Shown: one piece after another, positions 6,801 through 25,360 of the stretch
Layout of the letters: each line of letters begins with the position of its first letter
Numbering within the stretch: position 1 is the stretch's first letter
Translations under genes and position numbers: made by a program
IMG/VR virus record: IMGVR_UViG_2734482786_000001
Coordinates: 1-25,360 of that record
Direction: 5' to 3' (one strand)
Length of the DNA stretch: 25,360 nucleotides
Source: a virus
Taxonomy: Duplodnaviria > Heunggongvirae > Uroviricota > Caudoviricetes
Notes under the pieces: model-generated
Seen by the model: only the letters and a program-made list of their open reading frames with translations
Database searches by the model: none
What the model was told of the DNA's origin: nothing

Positions 6801-7451
6801 TCAGCGGCTGTCATTGCGCAGTCTGCGCTCCAGCTGCTGTTTGTCTTTTTTCACGCCACAGCGGGGATCGAGCTGTAACGCATGGTTGAGATGATTAAGG
6901 GCAGACGCCGGATTGCTTTCACTCAGGACCGCGCCAATCGCTTTATGCAGACGCGCCCGTGACTGGTCCGGCATATCCAGACCGTCTGTCAGCTCCAGCG
7001 TCTGCAGCAACAGATCGGCATCAAAGCCGGTGGTGGCAAGCATTGCGCTCTGCGCGGCGTCTGCCATTTCCTCTGCCAGCACGGTCTGCACGTTGCGGTT
7101 ACCCAGCGGCATCACCCAGCCATGACGCAGGGCATGACGCCCGATCTCCAGCGCTCCGGCATAATCTCCGGCATCAATGCGCCACAGCATCACGTACATC
7201 AGCACGTCATCCTGTTGAGCGCCTCCGGCAGCCAGGACACCCTCTGCCCAGGCGGCGTACTTCGGCAGCAGCTCCACCTTGATTTCCGCTTTTTTGACCG
7301 TGGACTGAACGCCCTTGAGACGGCGGCGGTCTTCCGCCAGTTGCAGCAGCATCAGGTCATAGCCCGATGCGTGGCGAACACTGCCGCCCTCGCGGGCGGC
7401 CTGTTCAGCCTGAACGCGCAGGCGATGCTGCCGTGCGGGACTCAGGCTCAT
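6801..7451 (-). CDS. M: Terminase small (endonuclease) subunit gpM
   Basis: 216-aa ORF with ATG start, between N and L as in P2. Confidence 0.8.
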   Translation of the reverse strand: MSLSPARQHRLRVQAEQAAREGGSVRHASGYDLMLLQLAEDRRRLKGVQSTVKKAEIKVELLPKYAAWAEGVLAAGGAQQDDVLMYVMLWRIDAGDYAGALEIGRHALRHGWVMPLGNRNVQTVLAEEMADAAQSAMLATTGFDADLLLQTLELTDGLDMPDQSRARLHKAIGAVLSESNPASALNHLNHALQLDPRCGVKKDKQQLERRLRNDSR

Positions 7452-7454
7452 GGA

Positions 7455-8513
7455 TTACGCTCCGATTTCGGCTGCGGCGGCGCTGAAATCACCAATCTGG
7501 ATGTTTTCCACCAGTGCGGCGCAGCGGTAGTCCTCAACCACATAGGCTTCGTTAACGGATTCAAAGTTTTCAATCCGGTCACGTTTCGGGTTGTCGATAA
7601 CTGAACGGCGGCGGGTGTCTTCCTGCCAGTAGATGGACAGGTTATCCAGACGGGTGATCAGCAGCGCATTCGGCGGGAAGAACGGCGCACGCACGGCCTG
7701 CAGGCCACCCATGCGTTTCTGACTGATGATCATATCGGCAGCCAGTTTTTCACTGTTTTCCTGCTCTTTGTTGACCAGCGGGAAATACTTGTCAGACAGC
7801 AGTTCACGACCGCAAATCACCACCAGATCGTCATCGTCCTGATAGACCACGTCGATAAGCTCATTAACGGCATCCATCACCACGGCGTCCAGGTTGGCAT
7901 ATTCGCCACCTTTCCCGACTTTCACCGCACCCGGTGTGGTTTCACCGCCCGTGGTGGTGCTGCCCATGACGTGATCCGGTGCATCCTCACGGATTTTCTG
8001 CAACCAGCCTTTATTCACATCCTGCAGTAACGGGTTTTCGCTACGGTTGGAGGTTTTCGCACGCTTCACGCCGTTAAAGCCGATCATGATGCGGTCCAGT
8101 GCCTGACGTTTCACGATGGCGTCACGGATACGCACCTGAAAATCCTGAAACTTCGCCCACAGGTCCAGCTTCGCGTAGGTCAGTACCGTGTCAAAGTTGG
8201 TCTGCTCGCATTTATATTCCACATCGACCATCAGCGTCGGATCGACAGGTTCACGCTCTTTCGCGGTGGTATCAGTGGTTCCGGCAATGGTGCTGCCAAC
8301 TCCCAACCCCAGCAGCTGACCGGACTGCTCAGTCACTGGCGTGACGTTAATCAGCGTCAGGAAAGCGGCGGACTGCTGGATCTGGTCTTCCAATGTCTGC
8401 TGCACGGACGGCTCTACGGTGAACTTGCTGGACAGTTCTTCAACTGCCACACCGTTCAGACGCGCCAGTTGCTGCAGGTAAGCGTTAAAAGCAAAGCGGG
8501 TATTCTTCTTCAT
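7455..8513 (-). CDS. N: Major capsid protein gpN
   Basis: 352 aa; ATG with GGAG RBS; long collinear similarity to P2 gpN as recalled (…FNAYL…KFTVEPSV…LDLWA.FQDFQ.RIR.AI.KRQ…GFNGVKRA…VIISQKR…). Confidence 0.9.
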   Translation of the reverse strand: MKKNTRFAFNAYLQQLARLNGVAVEELSSKFTVEPSVQQTLEDQIQQSAAFLTLINVTPVTEQSGQLLGLGVGSTIAGTTDTTAKEREPVDPTLMVDVEYKCEQTNFDTVLTYAKLDLWAKFQDFQVRIRDAIVKRQALDRIMIGFNGVKRAKTSNRSENPLLQDVNKGWLQKIREDAPDHVMGSTTTGGETTPGAVKVGKGGEYANLDAVVMDAVNELIDVVYQDDDDLVVICGRELLSDKYFPLVNKEQENSEKLAADMIISQKRMGGLQAVRAPFFPPNALLITRLDNLSIYWQEDTRRRSVIDNPKRDRIENFESVNEAYVVEDYRCAALVENIQIGDFSAAAAEIGA

Positions 8514-8529: not shown

Positions 8530-9363
8530 TCAGCAATTGGTCAGAGTGTCAGCGGGGGCGTTACCGCCTGTTGCACGCTGGCGGTAGTCCTGGCGGCTGT
8601 CTTCTTGGCTCAGCTTGTCCACCAGTTCGTTAAAGGCGGTCTGCTGTGCCTGCAGGGCAGTCTCCAGCTCAGACAGGCGTTCTTCCTGCTCAGACAGGGA
8701 TTTTTCGGTGCGCGCACTCAGGTTCTGCTGCTCAGTGGCGACCAGTTCCACGGCCTTATGCACATCAGAGAACCTGGCGTCATCGGACTGCTCTTTTTTG
8801 GTGAACAGCGCCGTGACACGGGCAAACAGGGACGGTTTGTCATCCTGGATTTCTTCCAGTTCGATCACCGTTTCCTCTGCAGCGGTAAAAAGATTGGCGG
8901 GATTCTGCTTGCGGTTTGCCAGCGGGTTATGGGCTGCACTGGCGCTGAATGTCAGCATTTCAGTGCCCAGACTGGCAGGGTCATCAGTGGCAGCCAGGCC
9001 AACCAGGTAGGCTTTTCCCGTATCAGCGAACTTCGGGCTGACTTCCATAGAGGTGAATAATTTCTGGCCTTTTTTCACCAGCTCCACCAGGGACTCCGTT
9101 GGCTCAACGTCGGCATACAGCGCCATCTTGCCTGCCAGTGGACCTTCCGTGATTTCTTCAGCAAACAGCGCCGTCACCTTGCCGTAGCGGTTAAAGGTGC
9201 TGTCCGGCAGATAAGACTTGATGTGCTCAAGGTTAATCAGCGCGGTATACACCGCCGGGTTGTAGCTGGCTGCCATCTGTTCCAGCCATTCACGCTGGAT
9301 TTCTCGTCCGTCGGTGGTGGCACCTTCCACCCCGATGCGAAAACGCTTTGCTTTCACTGTCAT
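8530..9363 (-). CDS. O: Capsid scaffolding protein gpO
   Basis: 277 aa; …FRIGVEG.T.DGR…INLEH…YLVGLA.TDDPASLGTE… matches the P2 gpO family; C-terminal …ATGG…TNC. Confidence 0.85.
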   Translation of the reverse strand: MTVKAKRFRIGVEGATTDGREIQREWLEQMAASYNPAVYTALINLEHIKSYLPDSTFNRYGKVTALFAEEITEGPLAGKMALYADVEPTESLVELVKKGQKLFTSMEVSPKFADTGKAYLVGLAATDDPASLGTEMLTFSASAAHNPLANRKQNPANLFTAAEETVIELEEIQDDKPSLFARVTALFTKKEQSDDARFSDVHKAVELVATEQQNLSARTEKSLSEQEERLSELETALQAQQTAFNELVDKLSQEDSRQDYRQRATGGNAPADTLTNC

Positions 9364-9505: not shown

Positions 9506-11272
9506 ATGAACACCACACTGACACCCGCAGATCTCGATCCCCGTCGGCAGGCCATGCTGCTGTACTTTCAGGGATACCGCGTCGCCCGCATTGCTGAAAT
9601 GCTGGGAGAGAAAGTTGCAACCGTTCACAGCTGGAAAAAACGCGACAAGTGGGGTGACTATGGGCCGCTGGATCAGATGCAGCTCACCACCGCCGCACGC
9701 TACTGCCAGCTCATTATGAAGGAGCACAAAGAAGGGAAAGATTTCAAAGAGATTGACCTGCTGGCGCGCCAGTCGGAACGCCACGCGCGGATCGGCAAGT
9801 TTAACAATGGCGGCAACGAAGCCGACTTAAACCCTAACGTCGCCAACCGCAACAAAGGCCCGCGCCGTCAGCCGGAAAAGAACGTTTTCACCGATGAACA
9901 GATTGAGAAGCTGGAAGAAATCTTCCATTCCTCCATGTTCAACTACCAGCGCCACTGGTGGGAAGCCGGAAAAACCAACCGCATCCGCAACCTGCTGAAG
10001 TCACGCCAGATCGGCGCGACCTTCTATTTTGCCCGTGAAGCCCTGATTGACGCCCTGCTAACCGGGCGTAACCAGATTTTCCTTTCCGCCAGCAAGACTC
10101 AGGCCCACGTCTTTAAGCAGTACATCATCGACTTCGCCAAAGAAGTGGAGGTGGAGCTGAAAGGCGATCCGATGGTGCTTCCTAACGGGGCCACGCTTTA
10201 CTTCCTCGGCACCAATGCCCGCACTGCCCAGAGTTATCACGGCAACCTGTATCTGGATGAATATTTCTGGATACCGAAATTCCAGGAGCTGCGCAAAGTG
10301 GCTTCCGGTATGGCTATTCACAAGAAATGGCGACAAACCTATTTTTCCACGCCATCCAGCCTGACTCATAGTGCTTATCCGTTCTGGTCCGGTGCGCTGT
10401 TCAACCGTGGGCGCAACAAAGCCGACAAGGTGGACATCGACCTGTCCCACAGCAATCTGGCCCCCGGCCTGCTGTGCGCAGACGGGCAATACCGCCAGAT
10501 AGTCACCGTGGAAGATGCGGTGCGCGGCGGCTGTAACCTGTTCGACCTTGACCAGTTGCGCATGGAGTACAGCCCGGACGAATACCAGAACCTGCTGATG
10601 TGCGAGTTTGTGGACGATCTCGCGTCCGTGTTCCCGCTCAGCGAGCTGCAGGCGTGCATGGTGGACAGCTGGGAAGTCTGGACCGACTTTCATGCACTGG
10701 CTCTGCGCCCGTTTGGCTGGCGCGAAGTGTGGATCGGTTATGACCCGGCAAAAGGTACGCAAAACGGCGACAGCGCCGGATGCGTGGTGGTGGCACCGCC
10801 AGCCGTGCCTGGTGGTAAGTTCCGCATTCTTGAGCGTCACCAGTGGCGCGGGATGGACTTCCGCGCCCAGGCTGACGCCATCAAAAAACTGACCGAGCAG
10901 TACAACGTGACCTACATCGGCATCGACTCGACCGGCGTCGGCCACGGGGTTTACGAGAACGTGAAAGCGTTTTTTCCAGCCGTCCGGGAGTTTGTCTACA
11001 ACCCCAACGTTAAAAACGCTCTGGTACTCAAGGCCTACGACATTATCAGCCACCGCCGTCTGGAGTTTGACGCCGGGCACACCGACATTGCGCAGTCATT
11101 CATGGCAATCCGTCGCGCCACCACCGCCAGTGGCAACCGCCCAACCTATGAAGCCAGCCGCAGCGAAGAAGCCAGCCACGCCGATCTGGCCTGGGCAACA
11201 ATGCACGCACTGTTTAACGAACCGCTGCAGGGCGAGTCCGCCAATACCAGCAATATTGTGGAGATTTTTTGA
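9506..11272 (+). CDS. P: Terminase large (ATPase) subunit gpP
   Basis: 588 aa; ATG start; size and position divergent from O as in P2; plus-strand gene pair P-Q. Confidence 0.9.
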   Translation: MNTTLTPADLDPRRQAMLLYFQGYRVARIAEMLGEKVATVHSWKKRDKWGDYGPLDQMQLTTAARYCQLIMKEHKEGKDFKEIDLLARQSERHARIGKFNNGGNEADLNPNVANRNKGPRRQPEKNVFTDEQIEKLEEIFHSSMFNYQRHWWEAGKTNRIRNLLKSRQIGATFYFAREALIDALLTGRNQIFLSASKTQAHVFKQYIIDFAKEVEVELKGDPMVLPNGATLYFLGTNARTAQSYHGNLYLDEYFWIPKFQELRKVASGMAIHKKWRQTYFSTPSSLTHSAYPFWSGALFNRGRNKADKVDIDLSHSNLAPGLLCADGQYRQIVTVEDAVRGGCNLFDLDQLRMEYSPDEYQNLLMCEFVDDLASVFPLSELQACMVDSWEVWTDFHALALRPFGWREVWIGYDPAKGTQNGDSAGCVVVAPPAVPGGKFRILERHQWRGMDFRAQADAIKKLTEQYNVTYIGIDSTGVGHGVYENVKAFFPAVREFVYNPNVKNALVLKAYDIISHRRLEFDAGHTDIAQSFMAIRRATTASGNRPTYEASRSEEASHADLAWATMHALFNEPLQGESANTSNIVEIF

Positions 11273-12303
11273 TGGGAAAGAGTAAGAAGAACCGCGCTGC
11301 GTCGACGAAACAGATCCAGCATAAAAGCCAGACTTCAGCCGAAGCATTCAGCTTCGGTGATCCCGTTCCTGTTCTGGACCGCCGCGAATTGCTGGACTAT
11401 GTGGAATGCGTACAGATGGATCGCTGGTATGAGCCGCCCGTCAGCTTTGACGGACTGGCACGAACCTTCCGCGCCGCCGTGCATCACAGCTCACCGATTG
11501 CGGTGAAATGCAACATTCTGACCAGCACCTACATCCCTCACCCGCTGCTCAGCCAGCAGGCTTTTTCACGTTTTGTGCAGGACTATCTGGTATTCGGTAA
11601 CGCCTACCTGGAGAAACGCACGAATCGATTCGGTGAAGTTATCGCCCTTGAGCCTGCGCTGGCAAAATACACCCGACGCGGATTAGATCTGGATACCTAC
11701 TGGTTTGTGCAATACGGCATGACTACGCAGCCGTATCAGTTCACGAAAGGCAGCATCTTTCATCTGATGGAACCGGATATCAACCAGGAGATCTACGGCC
11801 TGCCCGGTTATCTTTCTGCCATTCCGTCAGCCCTGCTCAACGAGTCCGCCACGCTGTTCCGCCGCAAGTATTACATTAACGGCAGTCATGCAGGCTTCAT
11901 CATGTACATGACCGATGCAGCGCAAAACCAGGAGGATGTGAACAACCTCCGCAATGCGATGAAAAGCGCCAAAGGTCCTGGTAACTTCCGTAACCTGTTT
12001 ATGTACTCGCCTAACGGTAAAAAGGACGGGCTTCAGATTATCCCGTTGTCAGAAGTGGCGGCGAAGGATGAGTTCCTGAATATCAAGAACGTGAGCCGGG
12101 ACGACATGATGGCGGCGCATCGTGTGCCGCCACAAATGATGGGGATAATGCCTAATAATGTCGGGGGGTTTGGGGATGTGGAGAAGGCCAGTCTCGTTTT
12201 TGTTCGTAATGAGTTAATACCATTGCAGAAACGACTAAAGGAACTAAATCACTGGCTTGGTGAGAAAGTAGTTAACTTTAAAACTTATGCCTTAAACTGT
12301 TAA
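11272..12303 (+). CDS. Q: Portal protein gpQ
   Basis: Track ORF starts at TTG 11269; the ATG at 11272 overlaps the P stop. About 343 aa. The last ~35 codons are AT-rich (see findings). Confidence 0.9.
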   Translation: MGKSKKNRAASTKQIQHKSQTSAEAFSFGDPVPVLDRRELLDYVECVQMDRWYEPPVSFDGLARTFRAAVHHSSPIAVKCNILTSTYIPHPLLSQQAFSRFVQDYLVFGNAYLEKRTNRFGEVIALEPALAKYTRRGLDLDTYWFVQYGMTTQPYQFTKGSIFHLMEPDINQEIYGLPGYLSAIPSALLNESATLFRRKYYINGSHAGFIMYMTDAAQNQEDVNNLRNAMKSAKGPGNFRNLFMYSPNGKKDGLQIIPLSEVAAKDEFLNIKNVSRDDMMAAHRVPPQMMGIMPNNVGGFGDVEKASLVFVRNELIPLQKRLKELNHWLGEKVVNFKTYALNC

Positions 12304-12320
12304 AAATTATTATGAAACAA

Positions 12321-12339
12321 GGCGCTTAACATAAGCGCC
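12321..12339. terminator. Bidirectional stem-loop between convergent Q and the DUF262 gene
   Basis: GGCGCTTA-aca-TAAGCGCC hairpin; on the minus strand it is followed by TTGTTTCATAATAATTTTT. Confidence 0.45.
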
Positions 12340-12348
12340 CAATATATA

Positions 12349-14130
12349 TTAGATTATATTATAGGCCTTCGCTGACATAGATAATGTTCTAATCTGAACT
12401 TTTTGGGCATTCCATTCCTCATCGTTAGATGAATACTCATCAATAAACTCATTAACCACCTTAAGGTTTGACTTCTTATACTCGTTTATTTTTTTACTTA
12501 AGCTATCATTTTTACATGATTCATTCAAAGTAAAGCAAAGAGGAAGAAGATTCCCCATTAATCCAACAACCTCTGAGTCAAAACTACTTTGTGCACCAAT
12601 ATGCTCGAGTGAAACTAAGTCTAATTTTAACTCATTAGTTCCTCGCAATTTCTTTTCAAAACGTTCAAAAATATACATTATGAGCTTACGCTGGGAGGCT
12701 TTTTTATTTGTATAAAATAAATTTTTAACAAATGCCTCATTGAATACTTTTTCATTTGGACTTTTCGCAGAAAAGTATGCTATTGCTTCACTAATGGTTG
12801 ATTCGATACTACGTTTATTAGTAGCTTTATCAAGGCTTACTGCTAATACTGAATACTTGGCGTCTATGCCAGAGGGTCTTAATCGGCAAATAGCATTAAA
12901 TCTAAAGTGGAATCTCTCTAAACACATTAGACACTCTATTAAACTTTTTTGCGAAAGACTTCTAGATTTATCTCTTCTTTTTCTTAATAATGACAAAATG
13001 AATGGGCGAGGGATTGAAACATTGAATATTTCAAATGCTTTAAGTGAATTGTAAATATCTCGCTGATCCTGTTGAGGCCAATCATCAATATCTGGAGAAA
13101 TTATCTTACAATATAAATCAACATCTTTATGCAACTCATCCAAAAATGAAATTGCAGTTAATCCATAAACACCATCATTTATCTCTCTTTTAAAGGCACG
13201 GTATAGTTGATCTTCACCTATATAATTAAACTTAGAAAGCCACCAACACCTGACATAATCAACCATTGTAGCGTTACTATCTCTAGCTTCGATGCAATTA
13301 GTAATATAATCCCATTTCTCTTTGGCTTTATCTATTGGATATGTTTCAATACAACTCTGGAAAACTTTATTTTTAATCAGATCAAGGGAGCTTAAGTTTA
13401 TTCCCCTTGCATTCAAAACCTCGAAAATATCATACGCGTCATCTTCCTTGCCTACTGATATCCTTACTAATTTAAGATAATTAGTAACCATATTGTAAAC
13501 GGCATTCAAGCAAAAAAGGTAATCTTCCTTTTTATACTTTACTGCACCGTCACGCAACAAAGAAGAACATAATGCTTTCTTTCCTAGCTTTCTGCTTAAA
13601 TACAACCCAGCATATTGAATCTTTTTATCTTCATCGCAAGTCACATCAGCTTTATGCTCAACTCTATCTTGGAATTTTAGTTTAAAAAAAGCCCTGTCAC
13701 TATTTTTAGAAAGCTTCTCAACTACTGAGTCGCCATTAGAACTGACAGAATTTCTATTGAACGTCTGATTTGCGGTTACGATATATGTTTTAAAAATATC
13801 ATCAGCAAATTCGGCCTTCCCATTTTTTCTTAAAAACCTAGAAATTAAAGAAAGTAGAATTGTAATAACACTGAAACGCTGCTGACCATCAACAATCTCC
13901 AAAACATTATCACTGTCAGCACCAGACAATACAATTGTACCAATAAAGTACTCATTGAATTCAAAGTCATCCCCTTTGGGATTTAATTTTATATTTCTTA
14001 TTATGTCTTGCCACAATTCATCAAGTTGTAACTTTTCCCAACTAAATTCTCGTTGATTCCGTGGAATCACATAACGCTGTTTAACAGAAAGTATATTTTT
14101 AATATTTAAAGGAGTTGCATCAAAATTCAT
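12349..14130 (-). CDS. DUF262/DUF1524 (GmrSD-like) nuclease family protein; candidate anti-phage defence gene
   Basis: N-terminal DUF262 signatures (VIPRNQREFSW, EIVDGQQRF, FEVLNARGINLSSLDLIKN) and C-terminal His-Me/HNH-like DUF1524 signature (SLEHIGAQ…GNLLPL…N). Start set at first ATG 14130 (RBS-like AGGGAA); the track ORF starts at TTG 14181. Strongly AT-rich relative to flanking phage genes. Confidence 0.75.
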   Translation of the reverse strand: MNFDATPLNIKNILSVKQRYVIPRNQREFSWEKLQLDELWQDIIRNIKLNPKGDDFEFNEYFIGTIVLSGADSDNVLEIVDGQQRFSVITILLSLISRFLRKNGKAEFADDIFKTYIVTANQTFNRNSVSSNGDSVVEKLSKNSDRAFFKLKFQDRVEHKADVTCDEDKKIQYAGLYLSRKLGKKALCSSLLRDGAVKYKKEDYLFCLNAVYNMVTNYLKLVRISVGKEDDAYDIFEVLNARGINLSSLDLIKNKVFQSCIETYPIDKAKEKWDYITNCIEARDSNATMVDYVRCWWLSKFNYIGEDQLYRAFKREINDGVYGLTAISFLDELHKDVDLYCKIISPDIDDWPQQDQRDIYNSLKAFEIFNVSIPRPFILSLLRKRRDKSRSLSQKSLIECLMCLERFHFRFNAICRLRPSGIDAKYSVLAVSLDKATNKRSIESTISEAIAYFSAKSPNEKVFNEAFVKNLFYTNKKASQRKLIMYIFERFEKKLRGTNELKLDLVSLEHIGAQSSFDSEVVGLMGNLLPLCFTLNESCKNDSLSKKINEYKKSNLKVVNEFIDEYSSNDEEWNAQKVQIRTLSMSAKAYNII

Positions 14131-14224
14131 ATCATCATTCCCTAGACATGACCATGGGTTGATCGTTAATTTACTTAACAAGATAGATTAAAACAACTAT
14201 TACTAATTCATATCTCAGCGCGCG

Positions 14225-14243
14225 CTCGTATCCCCGCCACGCC
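14225..14243 (-). other. Candidate cos site (19-nt cohesive end of P2/186-type)
   Basis: Minus strand reads GGCGTGGCGGGGATACGAG followed by CGCGCGCTGA; the first 13 nt match the 186 cos (GGCGTGGCGGGGAAAGCAT) as recalled, and the following GCGCGCTGA resembles the P2 left end. Confidence 0.4.
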
Positions 14244-14292
14244 TGCCCGCTTTATGTAGTGGTTTTCATGCACCTGCATGATCTACGCAAAA

Positions 14293-14312
14293 GCCCGCCA
14301 GTTCTGGCGGGC
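14293..14312 (-). terminator. Rho-independent terminator after the tum/DinI-like operon
   Basis: GCCCGCCAG-tt-CTGGCGGGC hairpin followed on the minus strand by TTTTGCG. Confidence 0.45.
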
Positions 14313-14447
14313 CTTAGCAAAAACGATCCTCAAACGATCATGCGATCTCATGCGGCATAGACATGCACTACAGAGCTAACGCCTCGCAAGGGCTCGTTGT
14401 TCAACCTTGCTGACGCCAGAAGCAAGTTCAGACGCCAGCAACGTTTC

Positions 14448-14681
14448 TTAATGCAGCCAGCTGTCGTCTTCCCACACCTTCTGCATAATTTTCATCACTT
14501 GTTTTCTTTCTTCGTCCTGTTGCAGCCCAGTCAGTTCCACACCGTTAGAGCTACCTTTGCGGATACGAATTACCGTTTTTGGATACAGGGGGCGCAGATT
14601 GCGGTAAAGCTCGGATTCAAGGGCGTCCAGGGTAGACTGGCTAATCTTCTGCTCTTTATCGATCATTATTTCAATGCGCAT
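14448..14681 (-). CDS. DinI-like protein (or C-terminal DinI-like domain of a Tum-type antirepressor)
   Basis: Start at MRIEIMIDK… with GAGGTGA RBS; MRIE…DAL..EL…WED.SW pattern matches the DinI family as recalled. The track ORF extends upstream to 14753. Confidence 0.7.
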   Translation of the reverse strand: MRIEIMIDKEQKISQSTLDALESELYRNLRPLYPKTVIRIRKGSSNGVELTGLQQDEERKQVMKIMQKVWEDDSWLH

Positions 14682-14691
14682 AAAAGTCACC

Positions 14692-14880
14692 TCAGCTGAT
14701 GACATCCATTGAGCGGTTGTATTCGTGGCTTCTGATTTTTGCCATGAGTTCATCAGTCAATTCAGAAACCCACTGCAGAGCCAGCCCCTTCTCTTCATCA
14801 CTACACTCACTAGCCGCTACAAGCTTAAGAAAAAAATCAATGCGCTGGAGCTTCAAAGACTCCAAAAAATAGTCCTGCAT
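14692..14880 (-). CDS. Small SOS-regulated protein, possibly the N-terminal part of a Tum-like antirepressor
   Basis: ATG at 14880 with AGGAGG RBS, about 45 bp downstream of a LexA box; the longer track ORF (to 14982) would start upstream of the operator and is rejected. Confidence 0.5.
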   Translation of the reverse strand: MQDYFLESLKLQRIDFFLKLVAASECSDEEKGLALQWVSELTDELMAKIRSHEYNRSMDVIS

Positions 14881-15033: not shown

Positions 15034-17448
15034 TTAATACAGGTTTCGCCACTTATCATCTTCCTGCAAACGCTGGTTCCGATAGAAGATACGCAGGCCT
15101 GCTCCTGACGGAATACTGCCGCCGCGAAGGAGTAAATCGACCTCTTTCTCGCTGCCATCAAATCCTCTGGACTTCAGTTCGTAGACGAGCTGCTGTCGCT
15201 GATGGTCTGTAATTCGCTGTTTGTAGTCTTTACGCCGTTTCGGTTTCACCAGGCGTAACCTTGCAGCCAGTTCCCGGCGCTCTTTTTTGCTCATACTGTG
15301 CAGGTAATCGTGCAACTCCTTGTCATCCATGCGGGTAATGTCCGTCCTGGTATCCCCATCAGCTGATTTGTCTTTCCCTTGTTGGTTCAAATTTTCAGCA
15401 AGGGGACAGTTATTGCCACGAGTCCAAGGGGCGCAAGCGCCCTGGTCGGCTGCCGCCTCCTGAACGTCAACGGCTTTACGAACCATTTTCCACTTCACTG
15501 CATGAGTGCAGATCTTGCCCTCTGCAATGGGTGACCAGATGCCATAAATACGAATGCCGTGATCGCCATAGGCGGTCGGCTCTTCGTTGATTTCATAAGC
15601 GGTTCTGATGAGGTGATATTTACGGGGAACCAGTACGCCGCCCTGCTTCATGATGTAGGTGGCAAAACAACCAGCATCAGCAGCAGCCAGAATGGCATCA
15701 AGACGCGGGTTATCCAGTACCGGCGCACCTGCATTTTTGTCCCCCTGTTGCCTTGCCGCCTGACCAGCCAACAATCGCAGTTCACGGTAAGCCTGACGCC
15801 CCGGAATGCCAAAGAAGCGGAATTGCTGAACACGATGCAAAGACGCCCAGGCATTCACGTATTCAGCGTTATCACGCAGAGATTTACCCGTTTCCTTGCT
15901 GATCTCGCCAGCCAGACCACGACCGTCAATGTTCTTACTGATATATTTCGCGATGTAGCTTGTCGGCGTTCCTTTGCGCGGGTTAATCAACTCAGACTTA
16001 AAGCGCGGCCCAGTGTTATTGCCCAGCTCCTCGCGGTCTTCACGGATGGCAAACTTACGCAGTAATGCAGTGATGGCACGGCGGTCTTTTTTGCGCATGA
16101 AACACAACAGGTGCCAGTGAACTGTGCCATCATGATGCGGCTCAGCCACCCGCACGCCATACCAGCGCAACCCGGCTTTGTGCATCGCCTTACGAAATGC
16201 AGCAAACATGCCGACCAGATAATCGCTGCTTTGTCTTACCGTCGCGTTTGTCCAGGTCGGGTTTGGTCTGCCGTTATTTAGCGTGGAATGGAAACGCGAC
16301 GGACAGGTGATAGTGTAGAAAACGGCGCAGTCACCGCGCATTTCCGCGATAAGCTCCAGACCTTTAACACAGGCCATCATCTCATTGCGGCGATGCGCAG
16401 GGTTGCTGCTGCTGGCGTTTACCACATCCTCCATGTCCAGCGTGTCGCCGTCTTCGTTCACCAGTTCATGAGAACGGAAAAACTCCAGCGACTTACGGCG
16501 CTGCTCACGTTTATGCATCACGGCTTCATAGCTGACATAAGGAGATGCTTTTTTGCTGACCAGGCAAACAGCGCGCAACTGCTCTTCCCGCCATTCGCAA
16601 CGCATCTTCCATAATTTCCGATACCACCAGTCGGCGCACAACATACGCGCCAGCGAACCCGGAATGAGTTCATAGGGCACGGGTTTACGGCGGTTTCTTT
16701 TCCGACGGAGTTGCTCAAACGCAGGTGGGATGACATCCAGACGCAGGGTCTCCGCTGCCACCTTTTCCCATGTCTTGCGGATTTCTTCTGGCTTAACGTC
16801 ATCGGTGGCATACAAATCACCACAAGCTGCATCAAGGCACATACTCATATGCGCAGCTACCAGGGTGGACAGGCGTTTCACCTGATCCTGACTCATTTCA
16901 GGCAGGATCAGCAGGCCGTCCAGCCCTTCATGGCTTGCCATAAAGCGAAAAGATGCAGATAGCTGACTGTCGCGTACATGCTCCAGTCGTTCCAGACATG
17001 GCTTAATCGTCTCACGTAAATAGCGGGAATAAGCCTTTGGCCTGCCCAGGCTGCTGAAGTATTCAATACGTTGCATCAGCGGCTTGCTGATATGGGAAGG
17101 CTGGGCGTTGACGTCCGCCAGAATGACCATGTCTGAATTAAAACGCTGCTGCTCATGCGCCAGCTTTGCCCGGCTAATGAGCTTATCCTGCTCCATTTCG
17201 CGCTGGACAGGATCACGTGATTCATTAAAGAAATAACGCTCCCAGACCTGATCACTCAGTGCCTCGCGGCGCAACTGTTCCTGCTCGTTATCGGCAGCGT
17301 ACAGAGTGATCAGGTTTGAAAGCGTAGAAACCGGCGCAACTTCCGCCGGGTCCAGATAAGGGTTAATGGCCTTTTTCGGGCTGTTCCATGAGAATGCTGC
17401 GGCAGCCTCGTTAAAGCCGCAGCAGTTGTTCATATCGGCATGAGTCAT
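15034..17448 (-). CDS. A: Replication initiation protein gpA (rolling-circle endonuclease)
   Basis: 804 aa; HUH-like motif region (…[10 protein letters not shown]…) and active-site Tyr region (…[10 protein letters not shown]…); ATG start overlapping the dam stop. Confidence 0.85.
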
Positions 17449-18302
17449 GCACGTACTCCGTACACGGCAGAACTATCCACGCCACGCGAATAATCAAATC
17501 CCATCCAGCAGCACGGCCCGGAAACAGCAATGATTTCTGTTGCTGATTTACCCTCGCCAGCTGCCACACCGATGCTGCGTTTTACCTTGATATAGTGGTG
17601 AGTAAAATTGCGATACAGCGAACGGATCAGGGATGTGTCACTGTTAGAAACAATGACTGGATGTCCTTCTGATGACCGATGTTCAAGAACGGATGCCAGG
17701 TGATACTGGTCATCTTCAGTGAAACCATCAGTGTGATAGCCGGAAAACGTACCGTCATACGGCGGATCGCAATACACCACATCTCCCGCGTGCAACATTG
17801 CCAGCGTTTCATCGAAGCTGGCGCAGATAAATGTTGCCCGCTGGGCTTTTTCTGCAAATGCACGAATTTCTTTTTCAGGGAAATACGGATTTTTATAATT
17901 ACCGTAGGGAATGTTGAAATGCCCGCTCTTGTTATAGCGACATAAACCACGGTAACCGTGCCGATTGAGATACAGGAAATATACCGCTTTCATGAAATCA
18001 GTAATTTCAGTGGAGTAATTAAACTCCTGCCTTATGTTGTAATAAGCCACCTCCCTGTTTGCGATCTCAAATAAAACTCTGGCGCGAGATATAAACGATT
18101 CACAATCAGCGGCAACCTTTTTATAGAGGTTGATTAAATCAGGATTAATATCCGCAACCAAATAGCTGGGGTAATCCGTCTCCATCATCACAGCACAAGA
18201 ACCCGCGAAAGGTTCAACCAGTCGCGGGCCAGCAGGAAGGTGTTTTTTCAGTTCGGACATAATGGCGGTTTTATTACCCGCCCATTTCAGGATGGTGCTC
18301 AT
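17445..18302 (-). CDS. dam: DNA adenine methyltransferase (Dam family, N6-adenine)
   Basis: 285 aa; AdoMet motif I ([10 protein letters not shown]) and catalytic DPPY ([12 protein letters not shown]). Confidence 0.85.
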
Positions 18303-22152: not shown

Positions 22153-23184
22153 ATGGAAAAAAGCATTAGCACATTTATGTACCTATCCGTTTTATTAGGT
22201 TGTATATTCTTATTTATAAAATATCGACTTTATGTTCTCGATCATAGAAGCCTGTTCCAACAACCCTTGTTCTGGGCTGCAATAGGCCTACCTTTATTCA
22301 CCAGCCTTTACTTTGGTTCTTTTGTCTGGATAGATAAAATACACTCTTTTAGTCTTACAAGTCACGGTTATGAGAGATTTTTAGATATCTCGAAATTACC
22401 ATTACTCATCCTTGCATCTGCAGTACCTTTAGTTTCAATAGTAAACAACCTACACAGAACCAAACAAACAGAAAAACAGATCTCAGAGGCAGAAAGGAAA
22501 AACAGGGTAGATTTATATTACAACCACATGAAATTTCATCTTGATTTATATAAAAAAATCGAAGGAAAAAGAATAGGCAGCTACTACCCGGTTCAGGAAG
22601 CTCAAGCTGAAGCAATCTACCAACATTTTATAAAACATCCACAAGAACTATATAGAAAAGCATACCCACAATCTACGCCTGATGATTCTCAACAATTAGA
22701 TATTAATGAGCAATTTGTTATTGATTTACACAAATGTTGGGTAGAAATCAACGCAAGACTCAAGCAATTATCCGAGAGTGAAAATCAAATACATCCTACA
22801 GAGGAACTTTGCACAACAAAGATGAGAATATTTGTAGGAGTTATGATTATTTATGAAAAAACTTGTAAACTGTTGTGTTTAGGTGGATTTCATTATAAAA
22901 AGTCATTTGTAATAAATGATAGTTATAATAAATACCAAGTTTATTCACCATTTTATGATTTTGGCACTCTGTACGAATCACTGCAATCCTTAGAAGAGAT
23001 AACCTACGCCTTCTTGGATACTTGCAGAAATGAAGTGGTAAACTTGTACTTCCCTATAGAAGATAAAATTTTGATATATGGTGAAGGGATTCTAGAGAAT
23101 TGGTTCAAGTATTCTCAGTTCTTGATCACTATAGCTTATCAACCCGCCAAGATGTCTCGCTTACCCCAGCTGAGACGCGATTGA
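22153..23184 (+). CDS. Membrane-anchored protein of unknown function (cargo between int and att)
   Basis: 343 aa; ATG 2 nt after the int stop; three predicted N-terminal transmembrane helices, then a ~230-aa soluble domain with no motif recognised by eye; markedly AT-rich. Confidence 0.6.
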   Translation: MEKSISTFMYLSVLLGCIFLFIKYRLYVLDHRSLFQQPLFWAAIGLPLFTSLYFGSFVWIDKIHSFSLTSHGYERFLDISKLPLLILASAVPLVSIVNNLHRTKQTEKQISEAERKNRVDLYYNHMKFHLDLYKKIEGKRIGSYYPVQEAQAEAIYQHFIKHPQELYRKAYPQSTPDDSQQLDINEQFVIDLHKCWVEINARLKQLSESENQIHPTEELCTTKMRIFVGVMIIYEKTCKLLCLGGFHYKKSFVINDSYNKYQVYSPFYDFGTLYESLQSLEEITYAFLDTCRNEVVNLYFPIEDKILIYGEGILENWFKYSQFLITIAYQPAKMSRLPQLRRD

Positions 23185-23300
23185 TGATGGCGACATTTTG
23201 GCGGCAGAGCTTTAAAAACAGATAAAACTGTCAAACACCACATAACACTAAAGTATTGTTTTTAAACATAAATCATTATTTTTTCTGTAGTAAAAATGGT

Positions 23301-23345
23301 ATGTAGGAATTTCGGACGCGGGTTCAACTCCCGCCAGCTCCACCA
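23301..23345 (+). repeat. Prophage attachment-site core: 45-nt duplicate of the ssrA (tmRNA) 3' end
   Basis: ATGTAGGAATTTCGGACGCGGGTTCAACTCCCGCCAGCTCCACCA matches the 3' terminus of E. coli tmRNA as recalled; upstream flank is AT-rich phage DNA, not tmRNA body. Confidence 0.75.
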
Positions 23346-23505: not shown

Positions 23506-25360
23506 TCAGAACGACCAGTTCACACCAGCTACCGCGTTCCACGGGGATTCCACACCGGCACTATGGCTATACCCCACCCCAAGATGCCCGCTTAACGTAC
23601 TGCTGAATGAGGCTTTAATACCTGCCTGGTATATTCCACGTCTGCCCGACAAATAATTGACGAAATTACCGTCACTATTCACTTTCACCCGGTTATCATC
23701 GACAAATTCTTTGCGCACAGCCGCCTTCAGCCACGGCTCAACTTCCATACCGTTCCCCAGACGCATGTTGTAACTCAGCGTTGCGCCCAGTTCACGATAT
23801 ATACTGCGGGTATCGACTGATTTCGATTTCATGCCATTGGATAAATGATATTCGGGGTTATCAGCGGTGAACCCCGTTAACGATGCATACGGCGTCAGGT
23901 TCCAGTTACCATCGGTAAATCGCATCCCGGTTTCAATGTGACCGCCCAGCCCGTTGCTGTGGTAACTGCCATTGGCGGCTCCACCGCTGCTCATTTTACC
24001 TGCTACGTTACTTTTAAAACGGTTCAGCTTCACGACACCGTCCAGATAGAAACCACTTTCATGTTCCCAACTGGCATAGCCGCCCAGAGAATAACTGCCC
24101 ACACTGCCATGTCCTCCGCGATCAAAACCGATATGTGAATGGGAATAGCCCATAAAAGCGCCTAGCGTGGTAATTCCTTCAGGAATATCATTACGGCTGT
24201 CGATCCCCACTGTCATTCCGGTCAGCGTCTGCTCAAACCCGGCACCCGCATCGGTGGTGACATTATTACGGGTGTTATACGTCGCCCCCCAGACATTATT
24301 GTTGTGTGGACTCGCTTTCATTATGTTCAACCGCTCGCGAATACTGTTTAGCTCAGCATCAAATACCAACGGTAATGTTGCTGCCATATTGAGTACGGCT
24401 GCCGTAGAAGGCGTAATGCGTTTCTCCGGAACGGGTGTCGGCGTTGGATCGGGAGTAGGGTCTGGTTTTGGATTTGGGTCTGGCTTTGGATCGGGTTTTG
24501 GGTCTGGCTTTGGATTTGGGATGGGGTCCGGGTTGGGTTTGACATCATTGGTCAGGTTCCAGTTGCTGTTGCCGTCACTTTTCAGGACATACTCATAGGT
24601 CCCAAGATCAACGAAACCGCCGGTATTGCCCAGCGTAAACGAAGCATCCCCTCCCCCTGTTTTCACCAGCGTCATCGCGTCGTCAGACTGTGGGCTGACG
24701 CCGGTATCCTGAACAAAGATTTTAAAATTACCAGTGGCGTTGTTGTTGACGACCAGTTGATCGCCCCGGGAGCCTGCAACGTTGGTATGCAGGTAGAAAT
24801 TACCGCTACCGGAAAGTTCATTGGTTGTCAGCGTATTGTAGATACCGTTAGTTGTGGCAGGCGCTGCTGTTTGTGCTGACAAATAAACATCACCGTCGTT
24901 GAGTAGCAAACTGTTTACTCTATATTCGCAGTTGCTGGTACCTGCACAGGAATTATTGCTGTTAAGCCAGACACTGCCCCGGCTGGCAGCCGTCAGGTCG
25001 GCAAGCGTGGTATCGACGCCATTTCCCAGAGTCAATGTCGCGCTATCGGTAATCCGGACCGCCCCTTCGAGTTTAACTGGCGTAACATTATCCCGTGGCG
25101 TCATTAACGACAGGCTTCCTGTCGCGCCACTGACCGATGCATCCGCCAGCGTACCTGCGTAGACGATTGCCGTACCGCCAGCGACCTGGAGATCTTCTGC
25201 CCGGGCCAGAGCCTGAAACTCATCTTTTGACCGCCCAAGGGTATATTGCCCGCCAGAGTTAACCTTTGTGGCGGAGTCCTGACCCAGGTTTTGCATTGCC
25301 CCACCCTTGCCAACCGTGGAGTCGCGAGCTTCGGTACCTGCTAAGGAAGGTGCGAACAAG
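23506..25360 (-). CDS. Autotransporter (type Va) outer-membrane protein, C-terminal part; gene continues beyond window end (host gene, possibly YpjA-like)
   Basis: C-terminal beta-barrel-type domain ending …VNWSF, Pro-rich PDPKPDP linker, Ser/Thr/Gly/Asn-rich passenger; no start codon context in window. Confidence 0.8.
   Translation of the reverse strand, partial: LFAPSLAGTEARDSTVGKGGAMQNLGQDSATKVNSGGQYTLGRSKDEFQALARAEDLQVAGGTAIVYAGTLADASVSGATGSLSLMTPRDNVTPVKLEGAVRITDSATLTLGNGVDTTLADLTAASRGSVWLNSNNSCAGTSNCEYRVNSLLLNDGDVYLSAQTAAPATTNGIYNTLTTNELSGSGNFYLHTNVAGSRGDQLVVNNNATGNFKIFVQDTGVSPQSDDAMTLVKTGGGDASFTLGNTGGFVDLGTYEYVLKSDGNSNWNLTNDVKPNPDPIPNPKPDPKPDPKPDPNPKPDPTPDPTPTPVPEKRITPSTAAVLNMAATLPLVFDAELNSIRERLNIMKASPHNNNVWGATYNTRNNVTTDAGAGFEQTLTGMTVGIDSRNDIPEGITTLGAFMGYSHSHIGFDRGGHGSVGSYSLGGYASWEHESGFYLDGVVKLNRFKSNVAGKMSSGGAANGSYHSNGLGGHIETGMRFTDGNWNLTPYASLTGFTADNPEYHLSNGMKSKSVDTRSIYRELGATLSYNMRLGNGMEVEPWLKAAVRKEFVDDNRVKVNSDGNFVNYLSGRRGIYQAGIKASFSSTLSGHLGVGYSHSAGVESPWNAVAGVNWSF

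Follow-up and report, generated by a model that had tools for sequence, protein, structure and literature searches.

A very probable P2-family cos site in an Escherichia coli prophage and the GmrSD-like cargo island that adjoins it

The window analyzed here, a 25,360-nt stretch of DNA (positions 1 to 25,360 of IMG/VR record IMGVR_UViG_2734482786_000001), holds a prophage of the P2 family, reversed relative to the P2 map. Between its DinI/Tum-like gene and an AT-rich island that carries a GmrSD-like gene, the minus strand contains the 19-mer GGCGTGGCGGGGATACGAG (14243..14225), directly followed by CGCGCGC; read directly, this strand runs through CATAAAGCGGGCA, then GGCGTGGCGGGGATACGAG, then CGCGCGCTGAGATATG. 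The 19-mer falls within the interval 14195-14260, which an earlier note had proposed as a candidate cos (cohesive-end) site from the resemblance of its minus strand to the cohesive ends of 186 and P2 and to the continuation of the P2 left end. The 29-mer quoted in that proposal, GGCGTGGCGGGGATACGAGCGCGCGCTGA, occurs a single time in the window (minus strand, 14243..14215), and none of 100 dinucleotide-preserving shuffles matched it with up to three mismatches permitted (≤3). The observation is confirmed: the sequence very likely serves as cos for a prophage of the P2 family (Fels-2/186-like, Peduoviridae) that has integrated at ssrA of Escherichia coli, and both the identity of the site and the position of the cargo beside it are already known and ordinary.

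The genes that flank the site are those expected of such a prophage. On one side are the packaging and head genes, each with Pfam support: the small terminase gpM (6801..7451, minus strand; Phage_term_smal, 1.4e-40), which would be the cos recognizer, the capsid protein gpN (7455-8513, minus strand), the scaffold protein gpO (8530-9363, minus strand), the large terminase gpP, comprising an ATPase and a nuclease (9506..11272, plus strand; Terminase_5, Terminase_6N, and Terminase_6C) and predicted to be the cos cutter, and the portal protein gpQ (11269..12303, plus strand; Phage_portal), transcribed toward cos. On the other side, the DinI/Tum-like gene (14448..14753, minus strand; Pfam DinI, 5.8e-23) is the last right-end gene before cos and occupies the position of tum in 186 and of DinI in Fels-2, SEN8, and the E. 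coli HS prophage; its RefSeq homologue is 234 nt long, corresponding to 14448..14681. The replication protein gpA follows (15034-17448, minus strand; Pfam). The resulting order, gpA-DinI-cos-cargo-Q-P with Q and P directed toward cos, is the layout of P2 and 186, in which the portal gene likewise stands on one side of cos and the right-end accessory genes on the other, and the element brings its own cognate terminase of the gpP/gpM type. Genes for 186-type CII, CI, and Int are found farther along the window, which also includes lysis genes, baseplate-J, and gpV. A 3′ fragment of ssrA (tmRNA) at about 23300-23345 (plus strand) marks the prophage border and attachment site, and the host is E. 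coli, represented by 18 complete genomes with 97.7-99.6% identity around cos.

The reference genomes bear out this resemblance. Positions 1-19 of P2 (NC_001895) are GGCGAGGCGGGGAAAGCAC, annotated as 'cosL; left cohesive end' and continuing with TGCGCGCTGA, and positions 1-19 of 186 (NC_001317) are GGCGTGGCGGGGAAAGCAT, annotated as the cos cohesive end, with the top strand cut at the 5′ end and the bottom strand at the 3′ end. The window 19-mer is identical to that of 186 at 15/19 positions, including the first 13 nt of the overhang without exception, and to those of P2 and P4 at 14/19. The differences fall at overhang positions 14, 16, 17, and 19 (ATACGAG in the window versus AAAGCAC/T in P2/186), and imperfect annealing with P2 or 186 ends would therefore be expected. 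Alignment to the P2 and 186 termini, which had been suggested as a check, succeeds: the window, P2, 186, and P4 align gap-free and in register from about -125 to +25, counted from the first overhang base. Common to all four are the GGCGNGGCGGGG start of the overhang, the YGCGCGC right behind it, the AAGNGGGC motif immediately ahead of the cut, TGCAT(T/G)AAAACC at about -29..-18, and GCAT-N6-GCAT at -110..-97 in register, with TGCAT near -124. The core of this alignment is a 55-bp segment (-29..+25; 14218..14272, minus strand) comprised of TGCATGAAAACC...AAAGCGGGCA, the 19-mer, and CGCGCGC, for which the window agrees with P2 at 42/55 positions, with 186 at 44/55, and with P4 at 43/55, while P2 and P4 agree with each other at 52/55. 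In blastn searches with the region, P2-like phages were matched with E-values down to 1e-113 to 1e-116, and Fels-2 is 100% identical to the window across 78 nt; Rfam and tRNA scans returned no match in the cos region.

Physical ends have been mapped in a near-identical phage. For the induced prophage of E. coli HS, read start sites and PhageTerm placed cos at 5′-GGCGTGGCGGGGATACGAG-3′, NC_009800 926016-926034 (Zuend et al., 2021, Microbiome 9:77, PMC8008629, Supplementary Table 4), and retrieval of these published coordinates verified that they hold GGCGTGGCGGGGATACGAG. The HS prophage is identical to the window at 55/55 positions of the core and at 144/151 positions of the longer conserved cos module described below; its large terminase is identical at 587/588 amino acids, its small terminase at 214/216 amino acids, and its portal protein is 95% identical. 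The core of Fels-2 is likewise identical (55/55), and in SEN8, a Salmonella phage that forms plaques, an identical 19-mer is labelled 'putative cos' and the record is permuted to begin there, an assignment made by annotation and not by end mapping. The synteny of HS, Fels-2, and SEN8 is that of the window. HS and SEN8 thus provide strong evidence, indirect for the present strain, that a terminase of this type would cut at GGCGTGGCGGGGATACGAG. The site itself has been identified before, by the mapping of ends in HS and in the annotated records of SEN8 and Cartapus. The HS attachment core, AACAAAAAACCCAT, was not found in the window, and the two prophages therefore differ in integration site.

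With the cut positions carried over from the identical site in that different strain, and the nicks placed according to the P2 and 186 annotations, the minus strand would be nicked 5′ of the G at 14243 and the plus strand between 14225 and 14224. Such nicks would leave 19-nt 5′ overhangs of sequence GGCGTGGCGGGGATACGAG and would make 14225..14243 (minus strand) the cos cleavage region. None of the IMG/VR loci ended exactly at the 19-mer, and six had cos near the locus edge.

The cos site is embedded in a longer conserved module (-125..+25, 151 bp; 14218..14368, minus strand), with variable DNA on either side in relatives. We examined 114 usable IMG/VR loci, gathered by a degenerate pattern ending at +12, among which the window type of 19-mer was the commonest (48 loci), followed by the exact P2 (31) and exact 186 (19) types. 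In the profile of the 48 same-class loci, conservation rises at -125 and collapses at +26. The HS prophage diverges from the window upstream of about -125 because it has an extra gene between DinI and cos. The module is asymmetric: almost all of its conserved sequence lies on the right-end side, and the left-end side contributes CGCGCGC alone. The segment -29..+25 fits the 55-bp core of Ziermann and Calendar (1990), as cited in passages of PMC5694545, PMC9594776, and PMC2231350; we infer the exact limits of its placement.

Two features of the module may bear on terminase action. The first is a set of four GCATG repeats on the same strand, at -123, -110, -100, and -28 (window 14362-14366, 14349-14353, 14339-14343, and 14267-14271, minus strand), compared with 0.11 expected per 153 nt; four were attained in 2 of 20000 shuffles. 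P2, 186, and P4 carry these repeats at matching distances from the cut, although the intervening DNA varies, and they are candidate recognition sites for the terminase (gpM), by analogy with lambda cosB. The second is the sequence CGCGCGC (14218..14224, minus strand), whose conservation and flank symmetry mark it as a candidate half-site at which the second nick would be made. The GCGGGCA before the first nick and the CGCGCGC after the second form an imperfect inverted repeat, in P2, 186, and P4 as well as in the window, and the two may serve as quasi-symmetric half-sites for nicking, like those of lambda cosN. A half-site of this kind would explain why exactly 5-7 left-side bases are constrained.

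Beyond these bases, homology to all relatives ends, 5-7 nt past the 19-mer (window 14220-14218). Ten sequences were compared at this junction (Fels-2, SEN8, Cartapus, five E. coli/Klebsiella prophages, FCI51, and the window): all agree in an upstream stretch of >110 nt, in the 19-mer, and in CGCGCGC, and they diverge right after CGCGCGC, as P4 does. Across the 114 IMG/VR loci, position +19 is Y, positions +20..+25 (GCGCGC) are 91-100% conserved, and information content is at background from +26, with a few loci deviating already at +24 or +25; the 48 same-class loci have 43 distinct downstream 60-mers. The stretch +26..+85 of the window is identical to those of HS, Fels-2, P2, 186, or P4 at 12-19 of 60 positions, which is chance level. 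GC content drops at the junction from ~0.53 to ~0.32 and stays low until about 12200. By these alignments, the island DNA begins at about base 27 of the predicted mature left end. The earlier note had placed the start of the DUF262 island within ~30 bp of cos, which holds and is now sharper (5-7 nt past the overhang), and its further suggestion, that the island would sit at the extreme left end of the packaged genome, follows from the identity of cos together with this junction. Since no more than 5-7 left-side bases are constrained, the stretch between base ~27 and the end of the portal gene (its 3′ end) can vary freely and forms a cargo slot.

The occupant of this slot is an AT-rich segment (12190..14217), the limits of which were set by its GC profile, the identity of Q, and the junction alignments: at one end it includes the 3′-terminal part of Q, and at the other it stops 7 nt short of the cohesive end. 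It carries a GmrSD-like gene (12349..14181, minus strand; Pfam, PADLOC, and RefSeq homologues) that is directed away from cos, toward Q. Translation likely starts at the ATG at 14130, 95 nt past the overhang, which is the start used in its RefSeq homologues (DUF262 proteins, 1782 nt); the longest open reading frame starts at 14181. Pfam domains GmrSD_N (PF03235; residues 27-274, 4.5e-32) and GmrSD_C (PF07510; residues 476-602, 3.6e-9) are both above gathering cut-offs, so that a DUF262 (ParB-like NTPase) N-domain and a DUF1524 (His-Me nuclease) C-domain are joined in one polypeptide, as in GmrSD-type enzymes. The PADLOC model HEC-06 matches at 3e-73, and type IV restriction endonuclease-like models also match. 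From these domains, the protein is predicted to be a GmrSD-type type IV restriction enzyme with a function in defense. The GC content of the cargo (0.31-0.35, with ~0.32 for the gene, versus ~0.52 in the flanks) indicates foreign composition, which here accompanies defense-type domains.

The distribution of this cargo is narrow. Of 5426 complete E. coli genomes, 18 carry the DUF262 island, in each case within the cos-adjacent slot, and the 2.9 kb of the window around cos are 97.7-99.6% identical in these 18 genomes from various hosts. Carriers of exactly this arrangement include E. coli 573 (NZ_CP102853) and ETEC4089 (NZ_CP122625). The flanks match in 1288 E. coli genomes, of which this cargo is present in 18 only. 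The sampled IMG/VR loci all lack it, and the island is not covered by any phage record on deposit. Near-identical phages carry other genes after +26: a 463-aa hypothetical protein in HS, a 565-aa hypothetical protein in Fels-2, and two genes including an HNH endonuclease in SEN8. Alternative cargos in near-identical prophages include HNH, DUF4145, ImmA/IrrE, AIPR/Abi, and Hypoth_Ymh, and the content between gpA and gpQ thus varies among otherwise homologous prophages. The spacing between cos and Q is ~170-180 bp of non-coding DNA with a terminator in P2 and 186, in contrast to the 1.9-kb island of the window, and the cargo of P2 (old, tin) lies on the opposite side of cos from the window cargo.

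The exchange seems to extend into the portal gene. From 12169 onward, the nucleotide identity of the Q 3′ end to HS declines from ~92% to 77% to 62%, and the last ~37 codons of Q (12169-12303) diverge along with the cargo; relatives with the same cargo have the same Q tail (FCI51 like the window, Ec5735 like Cartapus). These alignments suggest that the exchanged cassette runs from inside Q, via a hairpin at 12320..12340, to 7 nt past cos. The hairpin, located by a terminator scan and folding, lies between the convergent cargo gene and Q, is predicted at -13.0 and -11.9 kcal/mol on the two strands, and occupies the position at which P2 and 186 annotate tQ and tW; it is probably their counterpart, a bidirectional terminator.

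A second cargo slot was observed on the DinI side, between DinI and -125, such that the cos module stands between two variable slots. This slot is occupied in HS, Fels-2, Ec5735 (HNH), FCI51 (ComF-like and one other gene), and a Klebsiella phage; among the relatives' loci, it was delimited in L136 (1166-1843), L007 (2148-2879), L009 (576-1295), and L014 (543-1684). In HS and Fels-2, one additional gene separates DinI from cos, and in SEN8 such a gene lies on the opposite strand; in the window, the slot is empty (14369-14447, ~80 nt) and contains a hairpin of -30 kcal/mol (z = -2.3).

Variable cargo beside cos is well documented. It has been described in P2-like phages for the retrons Ec67 and Ec86 (Dodd and Egan, 1996, as cited in a passage of PMC5694545), and a cos-adjacent defense hotspot between gpA and gpQ, with 1,650 gene arrangements in E. 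coli and a counterpart in P4, is described in the consulted parts of Rousset et al. (2022; PMC9122126) and extended in those of a later article (NAR 2026; PMC13586616). The published P2-like hotspot and the window are alike in having variable genes between gpA and gpQ beside cos, and nothing essential differs. The consulted passages of the hotspot papers do not give the +24 to +26 junction, the two slots flanking the 151-bp module, or the co-swapped Q 3′ end. The limits -125..+25, the GCATG repeats, the 5-7-nt left flank, the two slots, and the co-swapped Q 3′ end may therefore be incremental additions.

The cos module is common: it was found in 1277 of the 5426 complete E. coli genomes, or about a quarter, at ≤3 copies per genome, and in 8 places on plasmids. 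Among ten sampled E. coli matches, none was annotated as cos (three coincided with protein-coding annotations, and the other seven with no feature at all). For annotation, the site would fix the physical ends of the packaged genome and make the GmrSD/DUF262 gene the first gene at the virion left end. The limits -125..+25, with the four GCATG repeats and the 5-7 left bases, would define a minimal packaging cassette for Fels-2-type phages and offer targets for mutagenesis, which is an incremental step.

In lambda, cos consists of cosN, with quasi-symmetric nick sites, and cosB, with terminase-binding repeats on one side. The site in the window is similar in its predicted staggered nicks with imperfect inverted repeats and in its one-sided region of short repeats, which here lies at the right end on the P2 map. 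It differs in sequence, which shows no similarity to that of lambda, in the length of the overhang (19 nt, against 12 nt in lambda), and in that the terminase of P2/P4 is reported to prefer covalently closed circular monomers (PMC2231350). Given this preference, cutting would follow excision and circle formation.

A plausible sequence of events can be proposed from these features. After excision and replication, the terminase (gpM as small and gpP as large subunit) would recognize the ~151-bp module, mostly from its right-end side, through GCATG at -123, -110, -100, and -28 and the TGCATGAAAACC...AAAGCGGGCA core. It would then nick the strands 19 nt apart, 5′ of G 14243 (minus strand) and at 14225/14224 (plus strand), giving a linear genome with cohesive ends GGCGTGGCGGGGATACGAG, and the 5-7 bases of CGCGCGC would probably act as the second quasi-symmetric nicking half-site. 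Between left-end base ~27 and the 3′ end of Q, the sequence could vary freely and serve as the cargo slot, which here holds the GmrSD/DUF262 gene.

Several points weigh against this account. The end mapping comes from HS and not from this strain, and the tail genes other than baseplate-J and gpV lie beyond the start of the window. A promoter scan yielded no promoter-like site between cos and the cargo gene, and its overall hits were no more numerous than in shuffles. In the IMG/VR sample, some of the conservation from -24 to +12 was imposed by the search pattern used for collection; positions past +12 are free of that pattern, and their conservation is therefore informative. The functional limits rest on comparative conservation and not on mutagenesis.

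The first of these points leave some room for a relic, in which the cos sequence would have been retained by descent in a defective or cryptic prophage that is no longer cut or packaged, with the island being chromosomal cargo. Remnants of P2-like prophages are known from E. coli, the portal gene of one relative is a truncated pseudogene, and the window holds only part of the prophage, the rest of the tail genes being beyond position 1. We nevertheless consider a relic quite unlikely. The packaging and head genes in the window are intact and full-length; identity to the inducible HS prophage is 99% for gpM and gpP and 95% for the portal; the cos core agrees with HS at 55/55 positions; CI, CII, Int, gpA, and the lysis genes are all there; and the arrangement has been maintained at 97.7-99.6% identity in 18 genomes from different hosts. 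The prophage is presumably still active.

A P4-like satellite as the owner, or the main user, of the site is most improbable by our estimate. P4 does have the 55-bp core (43/55 to the window and 52/55 to P2), diverges after CGCGCGC, and has a cos-adjacent hotspot of its own, as reported in the consulted part of Rousset et al. (2022; PMC9122126). In the window, in contrast, the genes around the site make up the complete structural and replication complement of a P2-type phage (gpM, N, O, P, Q, gpA, CI, and Int), there are no psu, delta, or sid-type genes beside the site, and P4-type genes are not contiguous with cos in the window; packaging by this phage of a satellite with the same type of cos, which could still occur, would be an additional use of the site and not a competing identity. 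A chance match in a GC-rich intergenic (terminator) stretch without a packaging role, for which the terminator-like hairpins of the region might speak, has a negligible probability and is already refuted by the shuffles (0/100), the blastn E-values (1e-113 to 1e-116 against P2-like phages), the same position relative to Q and gpA in all relatives, the 150-bp register across P2, 186, and P4, and the identity to a sequence with experimentally mapped ends (PMC8008629).

Taking the site to be the cos of this P2-family prophage, the sharp and recurrent junction may itself have a mechanistic origin. Dozens of unrelated cargos, in P2-like phages and in P4, begin 5-7 nt past the cohesive end, and a terminase-generated left end, or a cos boundary protected by terminase, might be the point at which foreign DNA is captured. 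We hold this to be a long shot; if true, it would explain why the cos-adjacent slot is the dominant defense hotspot in both helper and satellite. A weaker reading concerns the order of entry: if the right end is packaged first, the cargo would be the last DNA to go into the capsid and the first to come out of it into a new host cell. That direction is supposed because the recognition elements are all on the right-end side; literature searches for which end is packaged first returned nothing usable, and the direction is left as an inference.

Within the cos module, folding revealed a GC-rich hairpin followed by a T-run, GGCCCGCCAGAACTGGCGGGCTTTTGCG (14286..14315, minus strand), with a predicted energy of -25.1 kcal/mol (z = -5.0); none of 200 shuffles was equally stable. 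Its pairing is kept at 93% in the Fels-2-type class, whereas its eight core pairs are kept at 64% in the 186-type and 52% in the P2-type class, where the inner pairs are best kept and no covariation is seen. As a general element of cos, this hairpin was rejected, being well formed only in the Fels-2-type class and showing no compensatory changes. Its probable role is that of an intrinsic terminator, particular to this class, at which rightward DinI/early transcription would end.

Three further genes were observed in the window. A Dam methylase (D12-class adenine methyltransferase; 17445-18302, minus strand; Pfam) overlaps the end of gpA, such that a Dam-type methylase and a GmrSD-like, possibly modification-dependent, nuclease coexist in one prophage. 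Between the integrase and the ssrA fragment is a 343-aa open reading frame (22153-23184, plus strand) with no Pfam or PADLOC match, which may represent another cargo site, at the edge of the prophage. An autotransporter adhesin gene (23506-25359, minus strand) with Pertactin, Autotransporter, and AIDA domains lies immediately beyond the prophage and runs off the end of the window.

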